Shown here: piece by piece, positions 53,365 through 64,000 of the stretch
Layout of the letters: each line of letters begins with the position of its first letter
How positions within the stretch are numbered: position 1 is the first letter of the stretch
From: Pirellulaceae bacterium
Lineage (GTDB): Bacteria; Planctomycetota; Planctomycetia; Pirellulales; Pirellulaceae
Direction: 5' to 3'
DNA: 64,000 bases
NCBI GenBank assembly: GCA_035998725.1
Contig: DASYHJ010000003.1
Coordinates: 53,087-117,086, forward strand
The notes under the pieces: model-generated
What the model was told of the DNA's origin: nothing
The model's database searches: none
Seen by the model: the letters and a program-made list of their open reading frames with translations, nothing else
Made by a program: the position numbers and the translations under genes

Positions 53365-53722
53365 ATGGGCGTCCGGCGCCGCTCTCCGCGGACGCCGCCG
53401 GTGGACACTTCGGTTGGTCGGCCGGGCCCGCAAGAAATTTTTTCTCGCCGGCGGCTGACGCTCGCTGCGCTCGACGTTTCGCCTCCGTGCTGACCGATGC
53501 CACGTCGATCGCACGGCGCAACCGCTGACGGCGCGAGAGAGTTAGCGGCACGCTCGTTGGAGGCAAGTTTGCCGGAGGCGACCTGCTTTCCCGTCGCCGC
53601 TCGCTTCCCCGTCGCCCCCCTTCGTGAAGCTGCACGTCGCCGCGACAAGCGAACGTGCGTATCGTTTGATAGAACAGAACGAGAGCCCGCCGACGTCTGC
53701 CTCCTCGCCGCAAAGGGATTGG

Positions 53723-55072
53723 ACGATGGTCGAAACCGCATCCGGCTACGAGGAGTTCGACGAACCGGTCTCGTTCGAGTCGGGTCTCGACACGCTGTTG
53801 CTCGGGGCCCATCGCGAGAGCAATAAGGGCCTCGGCTTTCATTCCAAGGCCGCCGGTCGGACCGAAACCAGGGCCGCTCTCTACGACGGCGACGCCCATC
53901 TCTGCACCGTCGCGCCGACGCGTTCCGGCAAAGGGGTCGGCGTCATCGCGCCGAATCTCCTTACCTACCGCGGCCCCGTCGTCGTCTTCGATCCGAAGGG
54001 CGAGAACTACGAAATCACCGCGCGGCGGCGCCGGGAGATGGGGCATCAGGTCGTACGGCTCGACCCGTTCGGCGTCTGCGGCGAAGGGGGCGACTCCTTC
54101 AATCCGCTCGAACTGTTCCAACTCAAGGGGATCGACGTCGAGTGCGATTCGCAGTCGATGGCCTCGCTCCTCTCGCGCGGCATCACCGGGTCGAAGGAAC
54201 CCTTCTGGGACATCAACGGCAGCGGCCTCTCCGCCGGCCTGATCGCCTGCGCGCTGACGCAGGGAGACGAGACCAAGAAGAGCCTGAACTACGTGGTCGA
54301 CGCGCTGACGCGGGATGACGTCGTTTACAACCTCGCCGTCGTGCTCGACACGGTCGGGAAGGAGATCAGCAAGTACGCCCATCGCGAGATCGCCAGCATG
54401 CTCCAGATGCCGGACATCACGCGCGGCGGCGTCCTGGCGACGGCGCAGACCTACTTCAAGCCGTTCATGTCCGACCTGATCGGACGGACGCTGGGCGAGT
54501 CGAGCTTCTCGCTGCAGGACTTCGCCGACGGCAAGCCGATCTCGATTTATCTCGTGCTCCCCCCCAGCCGGCTGCACAGCCATCGCGGGCTGCTCAAGCT
54601 CTGGATGGGAACGCTCCTCGCCGCGATCCTGACGCGGAAGCGGATCCCGCGCCTCCGCACGCTCTTCCTGATCGACGAGGCGGCGCAGCTCGAAAGCTTT
54701 CCGCTGCTCGAGCCGATGATCACCCTCGCGGCAGGCTACGGCGTCTGGGTCCACACCTTCTGGCAGGACCTGTCGCAGCTCAAAACCTGCTATCCGGAAT
54801 CGTGGAAGACCATCCTGAACAACTGCGGCGTGATCCAGACGTTCGGCATCTACAACCGTGACATGGCCGTGCAGTGGGGCGAGTACTTCGACGCCGGCCC
54901 GGCGGAACTTCGCAGCCTGACGCCGGAAGAACAGATCATCGCCATTCACGGACGCGGCGAACTCCGCTGCCGGCGGCTGAACTATCTCACCGACCGCCGC
55001 TTCTCCGGCATGTTCGACAAGAACAGCTTCTACGCGAACCGCCCGACGCCCGGCCAGCCGATGGGGAAGTAA
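53723..55072 (+). CDS. Type IV coupling-protein-like ATPase (TraG/TraD/VirD4 family), soluble, orphan
   Basis: 'APTRSGKGVGVIAPNLL' Walker A, 'VVFDPKGE', C-terminal all-alpha domain. No N-terminal TM helices. The start is uncertain; an alternative TTG/ATG lies at 53624. Confidence 0.55.
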   Translation, partial: TMVETASGYEEFDEPVSFESGLDTLLLGAHRESNKGLGFHSKAAGRTETRAALYDGDAHLCTVAPTRSGKGVGVIAPNLLTYRGPVVVFDPKGENYEITARRRREMGHQVVRLDPFGVCGEGGDSFNPLELFQLKGIDVECDSQSMASLLSRGITGSKEPFWDINGSGLSAGLIACALTQGDETKKSLNYVVDALTRDDVVYNLAVVLDTVGKEISKYAHREIASMLQMPDITRGGVLATAQTYFKPFMSDLIGRTLGESSFSLQDFADGKPISIYLVLPPSRLHSHRGLLKLWMGTLLAAILTRKRIPRLRTLFLIDEAAQLESFPLLEPMITLAAGYGVWVHTFWQDLSQLKTCYPESWKTILNNCGVIQTFGIYNRDMAVQWGEYFDAGPAELRSLTPEEQIIAIHGRGELRCRRLNYLTDRRFSGMFDKNSFYANRPTPGQPMGK

Positions 55073-61108: not shown

Positions 61109-61356
61109 CGGGGCAGGCTTTCGGAGAAGCGGCGAACGGAGGCAGGCAGGCAAGCAGAGGGCACGTACAGAAGGATTCTGCCCCGCCGACCGCGCCAATG
61201 CAACGTGCGGAGGGGCGCCGAGGATTCGACAGGTCTTCACCGCCCGCCATTTGACGGCGGCGTGTCGCGCAGGCTAGCGTAGGCAGATGGCCGTCCGTTT
61301 CGATCGTCGAAACGAACGAAGCCCGTCGAACGCCTTAATCGTCGAGAAGGCAAATC

Positions 61357-61764
61357 ATGTTGACGAGTCGCCGCTGGTTCGGGGCGGGTGGGATCGCGCT
61401 TGTGGCTATAGGCGTCGGCCTGCTGGCATTCGGCGCCGTTCAGGCATTCCAGCCGGAACCGGTACCGATCATCCCGACGGTCGTCGAACTGGGCGAGTTG
61501 CCCGCAGGCGAAGGGACGACGACGCTGACGATCGAAAACCCGACCGCGGAGCCCTTCCGCGTTCTCGGCGCCCGGATCTGCTGCGGACTGGAAAGCGTCG
61601 AGCCGCTGCCCCTGACGGTGCCCCCTTACGAATCCCGCGAGTTGACTCTTCGCTTTCGCTGCATCGGCGAACCAGGCGCCGAGCGAAAGATGCTGTACGA
61701 CCTGTTCGTCGAGCGTGACGACGATATGACGTTTCGCGGCGAAATTCACTACCGCATCAAGTGA
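61357..61764 (+). CDS. DUF1573-like beta-sandwich protein with N-terminal TM anchor
   Basis: TM helix, then 'TVVELGELPAGEGTTTLTIENPTAEPFRVLGARICCGLE...', the same architecture as the C-terminus of the next gene. Domain assignment is from memory. Confidence 0.5.
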   Translation: MLTSRRWFGAGGIALVAIGVGLLAFGAVQAFQPEPVPIIPTVVELGELPAGEGTTTLTIENPTAEPFRVLGARICCGLESVEPLPLTVPPYESRELTLRFRCIGEPGAERKMLYDLFVERDDDMTFRGEIHYRIK

Positions 61765-61840
61765 AGTAGCCCTTTCGCCCGCGTCCGCGCTTCGAGGCAT
61801 TCGCGGATTTGGTAGGTTTTTCTACGGCGCCGAGTCAGCC

Positions 61841-61862
61841 AGAGAGAGAGAGAGAGAGAGAG
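61841..61862. repeat. (AG)11 dinucleotide microsatellite
   Basis: agagagagagagagagagagag, in the intergenic region 195 bp upstream of the MauE-DUF1573 gene. Confidence 0.9.
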
Positions 61863-62056
61863 CAGCACGAAAACGCCGAATCTTCGGGAGATTGCGGGGA
61901 GCGCTCGCATCGGCAGGCTGATCGCCTCAACGGGCTCAGCGGCAATCGTGACGCCGTAGCGATTTGAACGGATCGACCTAGTGAACGAATTTCCTTGAAG
62001 CGTAGCGAAAGCGTGGTAGCCTCTGGAGCGTTGCGTTGACCTAAGGGAGTACCCCG

Positions 62057-62914
62057 ATGCGTCGCGTCGCTCTTGTCTGCATAGGTCTGGTTCTTCTCGC
62101 TGCCGGGATCGCGAAGATCGCGGCGCTCTCCGGCCCGGTCGATACGCTGGGCTGGCCCCGCGAGATGATCGTCGCGGGCTCGGCGGTCGAACTGCTGCTC
62201 GGCGCCTGGCTTCTCTCAGGCGCGGCGATTCGCCTGGCCCATCTGGCCGCGATCGGCATCTTCCTGCTCTTCGCCCTGCTGTCGGCGTATCAGGTCATCC
62301 GCGGCGTCCCAAGTTGCGGTTGTCTCGGCAAGCTCTACGTCCATCCGGCGTGGATGCTGACCTTCGATCTCGTCACTCTCGCGACGCTGACCGGTCTCTG
62401 GTTCTTCGATCGGCGAGAGAGAAGCCCCGCCGATACGAAGAACGCTGCCCCCACCGATCGGGGCGTCCGCTCCTACCTCGCTTACGGCTCGGCCTTCGTG
62501 TCCGTCGCCGCCGTCGGCTTGTTCGTCGCCGGCTGGACCTTCGCAGGATCGCTCGGCGGCGCGGTCGCTGTGGCGGGTGGAAGCGAACTCGTCGTTTCCC
62601 CCGCAGTCGTCGATTTGGGTAGCGGTACGGTCGGCGAAACCAAGCAGGCGGCTGTTCGTCTGGTCAACGCCTCGACGTCCCCGGTGCGCATCGTCGGCGG
62701 GAAGAACAGCTGCGGCTGCATGGTGACCAGCGAACTCCCCGTCACGATCCCCGCCCGAGGCAGCGCCGCGTTTCCGATCGAAGTGACGATCACGAGCGAA
62801 GGTTACCGCGAGGTGTTCTTCACGCTCTACACCGATCACGATCAGGCCCGCAGCGTCGCAGGCCGCGTGAGGATGCGAGGGGCGGCACCCCTCGCGGTCG
62901 CTTCGGATCGCTAG
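62057..62914 (+). CDS. MauE/DoxX-like membrane protein fused to C-terminal DUF1573-like domain
   Basis: Four TM helices with 'SCGCLGKL' (MauE family motif). C-terminal 'VVSPAVVDLGSGTVGETKQAAVRLVNASTSPVRIVGGKNSCGCMV' beta-sandwich. Confidence 0.6.
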   Translation: MRRVALVCIGLVLLAAGIAKIAALSGPVDTLGWPREMIVAGSAVELLLGAWLLSGAAIRLAHLAAIGIFLLFALLSAYQVIRGVPSCGCLGKLYVHPAWMLTFDLVTLATLTGLWFFDRRERSPADTKNAAPTDRGVRSYLAYGSAFVSVAAVGLFVAGWTFAGSLGGAVAVAGGSELVVSPAVVDLGSGTVGETKQAAVRLVNASTSPVRIVGGKNSCGCMVTSELPVTIPARGSAAFPIEVTITSEGYREVFFTLYTDHDQARSVAGRVRMRGAAPLAVASDR

Positions 62915-62985
62915 CCGTTTGACTGTCGAAAGATCTGCGGCGGTCGCAGATCGAAGGTCATAGGTCGTCTGGAAGGAGTCGCGAA

Positions 62986-63507
62986 ATGGCACGCCTCAAG
63001 AGATTCTCTCGGCGCTACGGCAAGATCACGCTCGCCTCGCTCGGCGGAGCGCTGATGACGACCGGCATGTTCCTGATCGTGCTCTCCGCGGCGACCGTGT
63101 CGCAGGTGGCGAGCGCCAGCACGACAGGATGCCAAGCATACTCGTCGCCCCAGCCTTTTCACCGCTGCACGCCAGTATACTTCCAGGGCTCGATCTATTA
63201 CTATGACTGTTGCCATGAGTGCGACACGAAGGACTATTCGTATAATACCAATCCAGACTACGACTGCACCAACTGCAGGGACGAGACGGGCGACGGAATT
63301 CCGGATGTATGCGACTGCTGCACTGCGCAAGCTGCTCCGCAATGCACGAACGGCACTTGCGAGAACCAAGGAAGTTTGTGCAAGAGTCCACAATATGAAG
63401 CCACCAACGGCTACTGCGAAGCCCACTGGGGCTCCGATTGTAGAGTTCACTCGGGATGCCCGTGTACTTGCGACGCCAACCTGCTTGCGCCATGTGGGTG
63501 CCAGTAG
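62986..63507 (+). CDS. Secreted cysteine-rich protein (about 29 Cys in 173 aa), codon-atypical
   Basis: RBS GGAAGGAG. Signal/anchor MARLKRFSRRYGKITLASLGGALMTTGMFLIVLSAATVSQVASAS, then CC/CxC/CxxC-dense mature region. A/T-ending codons (TAT, AAT, CAA, AGT), unlike the rest of the window. Confidence 0.6.
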   Translation: MARLKRFSRRYGKITLASLGGALMTTGMFLIVLSAATVSQVASASTTGCQAYSSPQPFHRCTPVYFQGSIYYYDCCHECDTKDYSYNTNPDYDCTNCRDETGDGIPDVCDCCTAQAAPQCTNGTCENQGSLCKSPQYEATNGYCEAHWGSDCRVHSGCPCTCDANLLAPCGCQ

Positions 63508-63636
63508 GCGTCTCAGGTGTCGAAAGCGTGAATCGCATGGCGGCCCGCTTGCGAAGGCTGGACGTTCGATCGCACGGATATTTGTTTCCGTCGGTCTCGC
63601 TAGGGCGAAATCCCCTTCTCTTCGTTTCAGTCGCCC

Positions 63637-63870
63637 ATGTCTCAAACACGCCCAGTCATACTCGCCGCAACAGTCGCATGCCTTCTATGCCCATCCTGCG
63701 CACATGCACTACCGCCTGAAATCTCGCAGGGATGGGAGCGTTTACGGAAAGTATGTGACGAGCAATCGCACCTCGCCGTCACGTCTACCATTCATGCCGT
63801 CGTGAGAGGTGGACCCACTCCAAGCGAAGGACGCTTGGTGGTAATTGAGCAGTTCGCTCATCTAGTGTAG
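63637..63870 (+). CDS. Small signal-peptide protein (77 aa), codon-atypical
   Basis: MSQTRPVILAATVACLLCPSCAHA signal. A/T-ending codons like the upstream gene. Confidence 0.35.
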   Translation: MSQTRPVILAATVACLLCPSCAHALPPEISQGWERLRKVCDEQSHLAVTSTIHAVVRGGPTPSEGRLVVIEQFAHLV

Positions 63871-63941
63871 CGACATGAAATAGCGCGACGTTTGTTCGGG
63901 TGCGGGGTTTCAGGAGCGTCTTTCGTCGGAAAGGAGACGCT

Positions 63942-64000
63942 CATGCGGTCAGCGCCGGTCGTGGTTTTGTCGGAGGAGACGCGGGTTCGATTGACGAAGC
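63942..64000 (+). mobile_element. Partial ORF at window edge, possible IS630-family transposase N-terminus
   Basis: MRSAPVVVLSEETRVRLTK resembles the IS630 HTH N-terminus (…LSEEER..L…). Only 19 codons are visible. Confidence 0.2.

Follow-up and report, generated by a model that had tools for sequence, protein, structure and literature searches.

At the end of a 64,000-nucleotide stretch of contig DASYHJ010000003.1, from a Pirellulaceae bacterium (assembly GCA_035998725.1), lies a gene for an exported protein of 173 amino acids, 20 of which are cysteines. What is this protein, and how did it come to sit in this genome? The whole stretch, hereafter the window, had been read once before from its letters alone: that original prediction described the gene as part of an islet suggestive of horizontal acquisition, beside the possible start of an IS630 element, and left the choice between a densely disulfide-knotted product and a metal-thiolate protein. 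The answer that we reach keeps part of this description and replaces the rest. The gene belongs to a cassette whose order is conserved among relatives, and we consider it reasonably probable that its product carries about ten disulfides and is matured by the oxidase encoded immediately upstream, a fusion of a MauE protein with a DUF1573 domain.

An exported cysteine-rich protein and its relatives

The open reading frame (ORF) extends over positions 62986..63507 of the forward strand. It is present exactly as predicted, together with a second forward ORF of 77 codons at 63637-63870, called ORF77 below, and its product does contain the N-terminal signal or anchor and the three cysteine motifs that had been pointed out, DCCHECD, DVCDCCTAQAAPQC and GCPCTCDANLLAPCGCQ. 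The cysteine count had been overestimated: instead of about 29 there are 20, all within residues 49-172, and they make up 15.5% of the mature part, against about 0.9% in the other genes of the window. The leader, codons 1-44 (62986-63117, forward strand), consists of the n-region MARLKRFSRRYGK, a hydrophobic core of about 24 residues and a predicted signal-peptidase site between VASA and the serine that follows. The mature part, codons 45-173, is 129 residues long, acidic (net charge -11) and rich in proline, threonine and tyrosine; it contains 13 aromatic residues (Tyr, Phe or Trp) and 4 histidines, and ends in CPCTCDANLLAPCGCQ, the tail of the family described below.

The ORF is truly coding: it is preceded by the Shine-Dalgarno-like GGAAGGAG (62971..62978, forward strand), read from the sequence 7 nucleotides 5' of the ATG; the ratio of nonsynonymous to synonymous divergence (dN/dS) from its closest relative is 0.09-0.11 over codons 1-113; and its cysteine framework is kept across homologues. 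The start is placed at 62986 because residues 1-23 are conserved in all homologues; the JGI gene call begins at Met24, giving 150 amino acids, and the Logan call has the full 173 (P0001, P0040). The ORF appears to be absent from the NCBI annotation of this metagenome-assembled genome (MAG), no NCBI record having surfaced for it, and a promoter and terminator scan of 61200-64000 returned nothing above chance. Two special modes of export were considered and rejected: as a lipoprotein, the product would have to rely on TTGC, which lies far from the hydrophobic core and makes a poor lipobox; as a twin-arginine (Tat) substrate, it offers SRRYGK, a merely partial match, and a hydrophobic core that is long. 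Asp/Gly-rich stretches such as CRDETGDGIPDVCD occur at 63270-63320 (residues 96-112), and residues 63-71 of the homologue P0016 read DWDNDGTVN; we take both to be reminiscent of calcium-binding loops of the DxDxDG type, such as those of thrombospondin type 3 or dockerin.

How widespread is such a protein? The prediction, which recognised no described family in it, is borne out by profile searches. The window protein has no match in Pfam or NCBIfam at E <= 1, none in PADLOC, and in PHROGs a single weak one (E 0.063) to a family of unknown function; 13 family members scanned singly against Pfam at E <= 10 gave nothing apart from weak unrelated matches, and neither the family profile against PDB sequences (E <= 10) nor tblastn of the protein against plasmids gave anything. 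A word-indexed search of 5.8 billion protein clusters recovered, besides the protein itself, a single relative with 72% identity, and an exhaustive HMMER search over 1.84 billion representatives, followed by a profile search, about 16 homologue clusters. The homologues are all metagenomic, and those that bear a name all belong to MAGs labelled 'Pirellulaceae bacterium'. No family member came out of two pattern scans that sampled 185,579 species by one genome each, or out of a metagenome scan with the family alignment, so all relatives come from protein databases; one locus, L010, was rejected as a chance match of the degenerate leader DNA pattern, the gene there encoding an unrelated membrane protein of 341 residues. 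The family is a very rare and undescribed one of the Pirellulaceae.

Its members are held together by their leader and their cysteines. Leader identity among members is 53-96%, with the consensus MARMKRxxNRYGKITLASLGGxLVxIGxFLIVLSxxTVxxVARA before a mature part beginning DE: a basic n-region, a hydrophobic core of about 24 residues and an A-x-A cleavage motif. The mature domain, of 87-136 residues, is acidic throughout the family (net charge -5 to -25) and only 21-39% identical, 68% for the closest relative. Its conserved positions are almost only cysteines, in the window numbering C49, C61, C75-C76, C94, C132, C152, C158, C160, C170 and C172, which form invariant columns within a region otherwise about 30% identical. 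The tail follows the pattern C-x(0-2)-C-x-C-x(7-14)-C-x-C, at the C-terminus or at most 11 residues from it. Mature cysteine counts over 17 members are 20 (four times), 18, 17, 16 (twice), 14 (six times), 13 and 10 (twice): they are even in 15 of the 17 members, and thus the family has acquired its cysteines two at a time, which is what disulfides would lead one to expect and what metal-thiolate clusters do not demand.

In L006 (8001-8520; also L007-L009 and P0006) the Cys-rich gene is frameshifted after 87 codons, and the remaining Cys-rich domain, with the tail ...NCSCR*, continues in another frame. The 87-residue product is recorded on 15 contigs; a pseudogene, a systematic error of assembly and a programmed shift are all conceivable.

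A candidate oxidase in a conserved cassette

If the cysteines form disulfides, one may ask which enzyme makes them. The gene that ends 71 nucleotides upstream (62057..62914, forward strand) encodes a protein of 285 amino acids, built of four MauE transmembrane (TM) helices, a charged linker, a fifth TM helix and an Ig-like DUF1573 domain. It reaches 33.2 bits with the Pfam family MauE (PF07291), whose gathering cut-off is 27, and NCBI names the identical protein HEV7278775.1 a MauE/DoxX family redox-associated membrane protein. Two CxC motifs stand out on the forward strand: SCGCLG (S86-C87-G88-C89-L90-G91, with Cys87 and Cys89 at nucleotides 62315-62323), which lies in the loop from TM3 to TM4, flanked by hydrophobic segments 58-80 and 98-117, and a second CGC in the DUF1573 domain (C219-x-C221, with Cys219 and Cys221 at 62711-62719). 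Neither motif varies across 11 homologues, whose identity goes down to 26%, and both are predicted to be periplasmic by hydropathy and the positive-inside rule.

A 2026 preprint reports that E. coli delta-dsbB forms disulfides again when supplied with MauE proteins, that their active site is an essential CXC (CGC) in the periplasmic TM3-TM4 loop, and that they probably pass disulfides to a thioredoxin-like partner, 8.2% of MauE entries being fused to a thioredoxin-superfamily protein (bioRxiv 10.64898/2026.03.05.709764). No gene for a thioredoxin fold is present in any cassette examined here. The fused DUF1573 domain is the candidate for this function. Exchange between selenocysteine and cysteine is a classical mark of a redox-active cysteine. 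Two reviews count DUF1573 among the selenoprotein families and give 'UGC' as its motif (PMC9312934, PMC13188914), and since the selenoprotein forms carry UGC at the motif, its CxC site is likely to be redox-active. From the invariant CxC motifs, the selenoprotein forms and the lack of a thioredoxin-fold gene in the cassettes, we infer that DUF1573 would be the built-in disulfide carrier of the fused MauE, and the protein with 20 cysteines its main client.

The sequence of events would then be the following. The precursor would be exported through the Sec pathway by its family-specific leader, which is probably cleaved after the A-x-A motif. In the periplasm, MauE-DUF1573 would oxidise the 20 cysteines to about ten disulfides: the disulfides would presumably run from the CGC loop of the DsbB-like MauE to the CGC of the fused DUF1573, which would play the part of DsbA or MauD, and from there to the substrate. 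The expected product is compact, acidic and disulfide-knotted, with the cysteine framework and the C-terminal CxC...CxC tail as a scaffold for a very fast-evolving surface.

The same cysteines admit another reading, in which a periplasmic protein of the metallothionein or copper-storage kind would use its CC, CxC and CxxC clusters to bind Cu, Zn or Cd. The CxC and CC motifs are indeed dense, and the C-terminal CxC...CxC could make a tetrathiolate site. However, such a protein would be exported beside an oxidase that would close its thiols, and cysteine counts are even in 15 of 17 members; its 13 aromatic residues and 4 histidines are atypical for metallothioneins, from which the signal peptide and the oxidase neighbour also set it apart; there are no metal-resistance or metal-transport genes at any locus examined, and no metallothionein or copper-storage protein (Csp) matches in Pfam, NCBIfam or PDB sequences. 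We therefore judge metal binding very improbable. Of the two natures first offered for the protein, the disulfide-knotted one is favoured by the even counts, the signal peptide, the aromatic residues and the DsbB-like oxidase next door, and fits better than the metal-thiolate one.

Does the association with the oxidase extend beyond the window? Wherever flanking DNA is available, the family gene comes immediately after a MauE-DUF1573 fusion and before a gene for a protein of 329-350 residues. This third protein combines a signal peptide and a C-terminal TM anchor with a variable ectodomain and a conserved (Y/F)GLPEP...PGSYR...WLYYF motif. It has no meaningful match in Pfam, NCBIfam, PADLOC or PHROGs (7 members scanned singly, E <= 10), and its family profile found nothing among PDB sequences. 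In L001 and L005, which belong to the clade of the window, the order is as in the window: a divergent PQQ_2 beta-propeller gene, a TM-DUF1573-like gene of 133-137 codons and the fusion. The neighbours of the window cassette are genes for a PQQ_2/BamB-like propeller, a Band_7 protein and sulfatases, and MauE is the only Mau protein encoded there. The cassette comprises a TM-DUF1573 protein, the MauE-DUF1573 fusion proposed as oxidase, the Cys-rich cargo and a membrane-anchored partner of about 330 residues; in the window, the gene of this partner has been cut by an insertion.

MauE-DUF1573 fusions at 26-35% identity, from five locus types, allow a more distant comparison. Four of the five types (L011, L012, L014 and L016) have in the same slot a small secreted Cys-rich ORF, unrelated to the family by HMMER, followed by a protein of 319-349 residues with an (F/Y)G(L/F)PEP motif and a TM helix; all four slot ORFs have A-x-A signal sites. 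Their lengths, cysteine numbers and tails are 84 residues, 10 Cys and CAICQC...CNCQ in L011; 123, 15 and CLC...CNCPK in L012; 130, 15 and CKACVC...CEC in L014; and 93, 11 and CKCKC...CGCF in L016. The CxC...CxC tail is found by pattern search in three of the four, L012 having CLC...CNC instead. Of the 10 locus types examined, 9 have a Cys-rich gene in the slot, and conservation of the cassette thus reaches far past the Cys-rich family. It is also present in several copies per Pirellulaceae genome, one MAG having, by accessions, at least three MauE-DUF1573 paralogues (HEV7278775, HEV7281552 and HEV7281604). HEV7278775.1 is the protein of the window; HEV7281552.1 and HEV7281604.1 are on one 279-kb contig, the latter beside the Cys-rich HEV7281605.1.

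Several facts weigh against the proposal of a dedicated oxidase and its disulfide-knotted product. Gene adjacency alone is no proof of an enzyme-substrate relation, and the activity of MauE in place of DsbB comes from a preprint on proteins of other phyla. The DUF1573 domain of the window fusion scores 23.4 bits with PF07610, just under the cut-off of 26.1, and it is to homologues (P0019, P0022, P0028-30, P0032, P0034 and P0035) that precomputed Pfam assigns this family. Two members have odd cysteine counts, P0013 (17) and L012 (13). The fifth distant locus type, L018 (2443-5389), has a fusion at 33% identity and in the slot a secreted protein of 112 residues without any cysteine, followed by a protein of at least 434 residues that runs off the contig and has a SAYGFPEP motif near its end; the invariant pair may thus be MauE-DUF1573 and the anchored protein, with the middle gene as exchangeable cargo. 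The hydrophobic core of 24 residues could be an uncleaved anchor. Finally, AlphaFold2 gives a mean confidence score (pLDDT) of 59.5 for the full protein and 63.5 for the mature part, is confident only at residues ~46-118 (75-95) and poor over the C-terminal half, and the predicted structure matched no known fold.

The remaining gene of the cassette, at 61357..61764 of the forward strand, encodes a small TM-DUF1573-like protein of 135 residues with one TM helix, an Ig domain and a Cys-Cys pair at residues 75-76 (nucleotides 61579-61584). It is an accessory of the cassette in the clade of the window and has diverged strongly, with 46% amino acid identity to the close relative. In L012 (5729-6170) and L014 (3029-3430, equivalent to L015 3003-) the reading frame of the small gene meets a TGA, after 74 codons in the first locus and 72 in the second, and then stays open through a complete Ig-like domain. 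Without gaps, this TGA aligns with the second Cys of the pair in the window protein and with the first Cys of the fused CGC, and in both loci there is a hairpin 13-16 nucleotides downstream, with GU in the apical loop. A search of L012 and L014 with Rfam returned no selenocysteine insertion sequence (SECIS) or other RNA. The codon probably stands for selenocysteine, matching the published 'UGC' selenoproteins of DUF1573.

Codon usage, mosaic divergence and the end of the contig

We now turn to the origin of the gene. The window has a GC content of 65.9%, and its 42 likely genes have a mean GC content at third codon positions (GC3) of 0.83 (standard deviation 0.046); the raw values of the Cys-rich gene and of ORF77 are 0.71 and 0.50. 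When the expected GC3 is conditioned on the amino acids of a segment and on the codon usage of the window itself, the leader (codons 1-45) is typical, with 0.91 observed for 0.88 expected (z = +0.7), but the mature part (codons 46-173) has 0.64 for 0.84 (z = -6.5) and ORF77 has 0.49 for 0.85 (z = -9.0). The mature part lies below all 372 control windows of 128 codons, and the Cys-rich ORF has the lowest composition-corrected GC3 of the 42 likely genes. The codon atypicality that had been noticed is thus real for the mature part and ORF77, but does not extend to the leader: the atypical stretch begins inside the gene, past the signal sequence. Nor are the codons of the mature part mainly A/T-ending: GC3 is low, yet most of them still end in G or C, with TGC and TGT, for example, in a ratio of 16:4.

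Such values could betray a foreign islet that arrived recently, with or by an adjacent insertion sequence, especially as an insertion with a transposase-like ORF start lies 350 nucleotides downstream and a VirD4/TraG-like gene about 8 kb upstream. The data of the relatives say otherwise. The same gene order (small DUF1573-like gene, MauE-DUF1573, Cys-rich gene and a gene for a protein of 330-350 residues) is found in relatives, next to the same PQQ-propeller gene, which adjoins the cassette in both L001 and L005. Codon usage is native in both the leader and the MauE gene before it, and a relative with the same gene order matches the two at 92-97% and 86-97% nucleotide identity. The insertion interrupts the cassette rather than flanking it. 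Moreover, low GC3 recurs in relatives, at 0.60-0.76 in the mature region and 0.59-0.75 in the downstream gene, below the neighbouring genes (0.71-0.95) in most loci, and is therefore a family trait rather than the mark of a recent import. Conserved synteny contradicts the horizontal acquisition that was originally put forward, and we give hardly any credence to it. The VirD4/TraG-type gene, at 53624-55072 of the forward strand, encodes a coupling protein with matches to T4SS-DNA_transf, TrwB_AAD_bind and TraG-D_C; no further conjugation genes were noticed near it in the gene list of L003, the contig of the window itself.

What then sets the mature part apart? A comparison along the locus with the closest relative, L001/L002, suggests an answer. 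Nucleotide identity and synonymous divergence (dS) are 87-92% and 0.46 in the PQQ-propeller gene, 56-69% and 1.43 in the small DUF1573-like gene, 86-97% and 0.27 in MauE-DUF1573, and 92-97% and 0.19 in the leader of the Cys-rich gene. They then change within the gene, to 80-86% and 0.99 over codons 46-113, and from codon 114 onwards, and further downstream, identity is at about 60%, the alignment baseline, with dS saturated. The leader and the N-terminal half are under purifying selection (dN/dS ~0.1). With saturation reaching the synonymous sites as well, these two segments, the C-terminal half and the downstream gene, are alleles of old date that were exchanged, rather than sequences that simply evolve fast.

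The small gene and the fusion also tell different histories: L001 and L005 share 68% amino acid identity in the small protein, against 46% for L001 and the window, and the relation is reversed in MauE, at 62% for L001 and L005 and 87% for L001 and the window. The pattern is one of mosaic, allele-like divergence within a native, multi-copy, recombining and hypervariable locus, and not the signature of a foreign islet.

ORF77 (63637..63870, forward strand) finds its place in the same comparison. By tblastn, it is 48% identical to the third-gene protein of L002, of 329 residues, over codons 1-~73 (E 2e-22), and homology to the third gene ends near 63854: ORF77 is a truncated 5' remnant, in which about 73 codons from the start of the third gene of the cassette survive, and not an independent small gene. 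What follows, from 63855..64000 on the forward strand, is unrelated to the third gene of the relatives and is presumed to be the left end of an inserted repeated or mobile element.

The ORF announced near the window end is there, beginning at 63943 and reading MRSAPVVVLSEETRVRLTK over 19 codons before it runs off the window. These residues resemble what we take to be the N-terminal helix-turn-helix of IS630-type transposases, in a match too short to assign; an IS630 start at 63943 is plausible, with indirect support from the truncated third gene and from the end of the JGI copy of the contig. The terminal 150 nucleotides are not repeated elsewhere in the window, nor do they occur in any fetched locus other than L003, and neither Pfam on the 24-residue translation of the terminal ORF nor tblastn against plasmids gave a match. 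In the JGI copy, the contig stops near 63986, 14 nucleotides short of the window end: an assembly break inside a repeated element that split the third gene explains both ORF77 and the end of the contig.

Possible roles and known systems

The most likely role of the product is that of an effector, secreted or at the surface, on which diversifying or allelic selection would act, and the downstream protein is possibly its paired receptor or immunity factor. As a refinement of the disulfide proposal, one may tentatively conjecture a polymorphic pair, a bacteriocin-like toxin with its immunity or receptor protein; it is an equally tentative conjecture that the variable halves of the two genes are exchanged together between conserved arms, the leader on one side and the C-terminal anchor on the other. 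Both proteins are hypervariable, with identities of 21-39% for the Cys-rich protein and 20-35% for its neighbour, against 62-87% for MauE; dS is saturated in the C-terminal half of the first gene and in the second, against 0.2-0.45 in the flanks; and GC3 is lowered in both genes across loci. The presence of at least three MauE-DUF1573 paralogues in the MAG, the exporter genes that flank the cassette in the clade of L004 and L006 (an OEP-domain protein with MFP, ABC and MacB/FtsX genes) and the analogy of the sublancin operon, with BdbB and SunI (PMC6391423), point the same way. However, neither protein has a toxin, bacteriocin, immunity or defence match in Pfam, NCBIfam, PADLOC or PHROGs, and the mature proteins are acidic, unlike most membrane-active peptides. 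Neither the window nor L005 has the exporter genes, and the Cys-rich gene itself is frameshifted in L006-9. In the window, the 'toxin' is intact and the 'immunity' gene truncated, which would be self-harming unless another paralogue protects.

Could the protein be part of the cell surface instead? Cys-rich YTV proteins, which are planctomycete-specific, abound in wall preparations of planctomycetes (PMC8567305), and a disulfide-cross-linked structural component of this proteinaceous wall or surface could be oxidised by the neighbouring MauE in the same way; the long hydrophobic leader could anchor it, and its acidic composition, rich in Pro, Thr and Tyr, would suit. However, none of 13 members matches YTV profiles in Pfam at E <= 10, the family is extremely rare, being absent from the scans of 185,579 species, and structural proteins are not usually hypervariable, frameshifted or swappable for a Cys-free protein. 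We find such a structural role improbable, though less so than metal binding.

Two further candidates were rejected. A precursor of a ribosomally synthesised and post-translationally modified peptide is not indicated: there are no radical SAM, YcaO or LanM/LanB-type domains among the neighbours in the fetched loci, and the leader has the classical n-h-c form with A-x-A. A cofactor protein like MauA, the light chain of methylamine dehydrogenase, was rejected on the lack of a PDB profile match at E <= 10, of mauB, mauD and mauG neighbours and of a conserved Trp pair. The PDB set searched should, we presume, contain methylamine dehydrogenase light chains.

Comparison with known systems nevertheless helps to situate the locus. 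In the MauE/MauD-MauA system, too, a MauE-family protein is encoded beside a small exported disulfide-rich protein (~130 residues when mature), MauA having 6 disulfides. This locus differs in having no mauB, mauD or mauG; the candidate carrier here is the fused Ig-like DUF1573, against the thioredoxin-fold MauD there; the substrate here is hypervariable; and a tryptophan tryptophylquinone (TTQ) cofactor is unlikely, because no Trp pair is conserved. The fusions of VKOR or MauE with thioredoxin share the principle of a quinone-linked membrane oxidase joined to a periplasmic disulfide-carrier domain, but that domain has a thioredoxin fold with CxxC, unlike the Ig/ASH-like DUF1573 with its CxC and selenocysteine variants.

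In the sublancin operon, a dedicated membrane disulfide oxidase (BdbB) accompanies a secreted disulfide peptide, with a membrane-anchored protective partner (SunI) nearby (PMC6391423). The oxidase there is of the DsbB type and here a MauE; there is no glycosyltransferase here; the leader here is of the Sec type, whereas a dedicated transporter, SunT, both processes and exports sublancin; and sublancin has 2 disulfides where our protein, whose antimicrobial activity is putative, would have 10. With conotoxin and defensin families the Cys-rich proteins share a conserved leader, a hypervariable mature part, invariant cysteine columns and cysteines gained in pairs, but they are bacterial, larger (87-136 residues), acidic and without homology to them, so that the evolutionary pattern alone is alike. 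Every feature of membership tested for these systems failed, and the Cys-rich family is a member of none of them, nor of the YTV proteins or the metallothioneins.

In principle, then, the locus holds no surprise: a dedicated oxidase with a disulfide-rich secreted product is already known as a kind. New here are the Cys-rich family, its obligate pairing with MauE-DUF1573, the candidate Ig-like carrier with CxC (or selenocysteine), and the architecture of the cassette. The locus offers a testable trio for the natural partners and substrates of MauE, namely the fused oxidase, a probable substrate with 20 cysteines and a co-varying anchored partner. Should the trio be confirmed, it would provide a new route of oxidative folding in Planctomycetota, a function for DUF1573, which is a large orphan domain family with selenoprotein members, and a family of fast-evolving disulfide-knotted bacterial proteins that are possible effectors or useful scaffolds.

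A bolder generalisation, which we regard as possible but doubtful, is that of a redox cassette restricted to Planctomycetota, in which MauE-DUF1573 and TM-DUF1573, with selenocysteine in some lineages, make a hypervariable protein of about ten disulfides whose variable half is exchanged together with the ectodomain of its partner. If true, this would be a new class of polymorphic effector/immunity or self-recognition system, and the first natural dedicated substrate of MauE outside methylamine dehydrogenase.

A last observation concerns the surroundings of the cassette in other clades. In L004 (3501-15300) and L006 (3503-13432), a protein of 1113-1136 residues with a TolC-like OEP domain is encoded upstream, and a DUF1559/N-methyl pseudopilin-like gene lies downstream, followed in L004 by MFP, ABC ATPase and MacB/FtsX permease genes. 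In this clade, the exporter genes could constitute a dedicated export route. L014 and the JGI contig of P0009, too, have a DUF1559 gene after the cassette.

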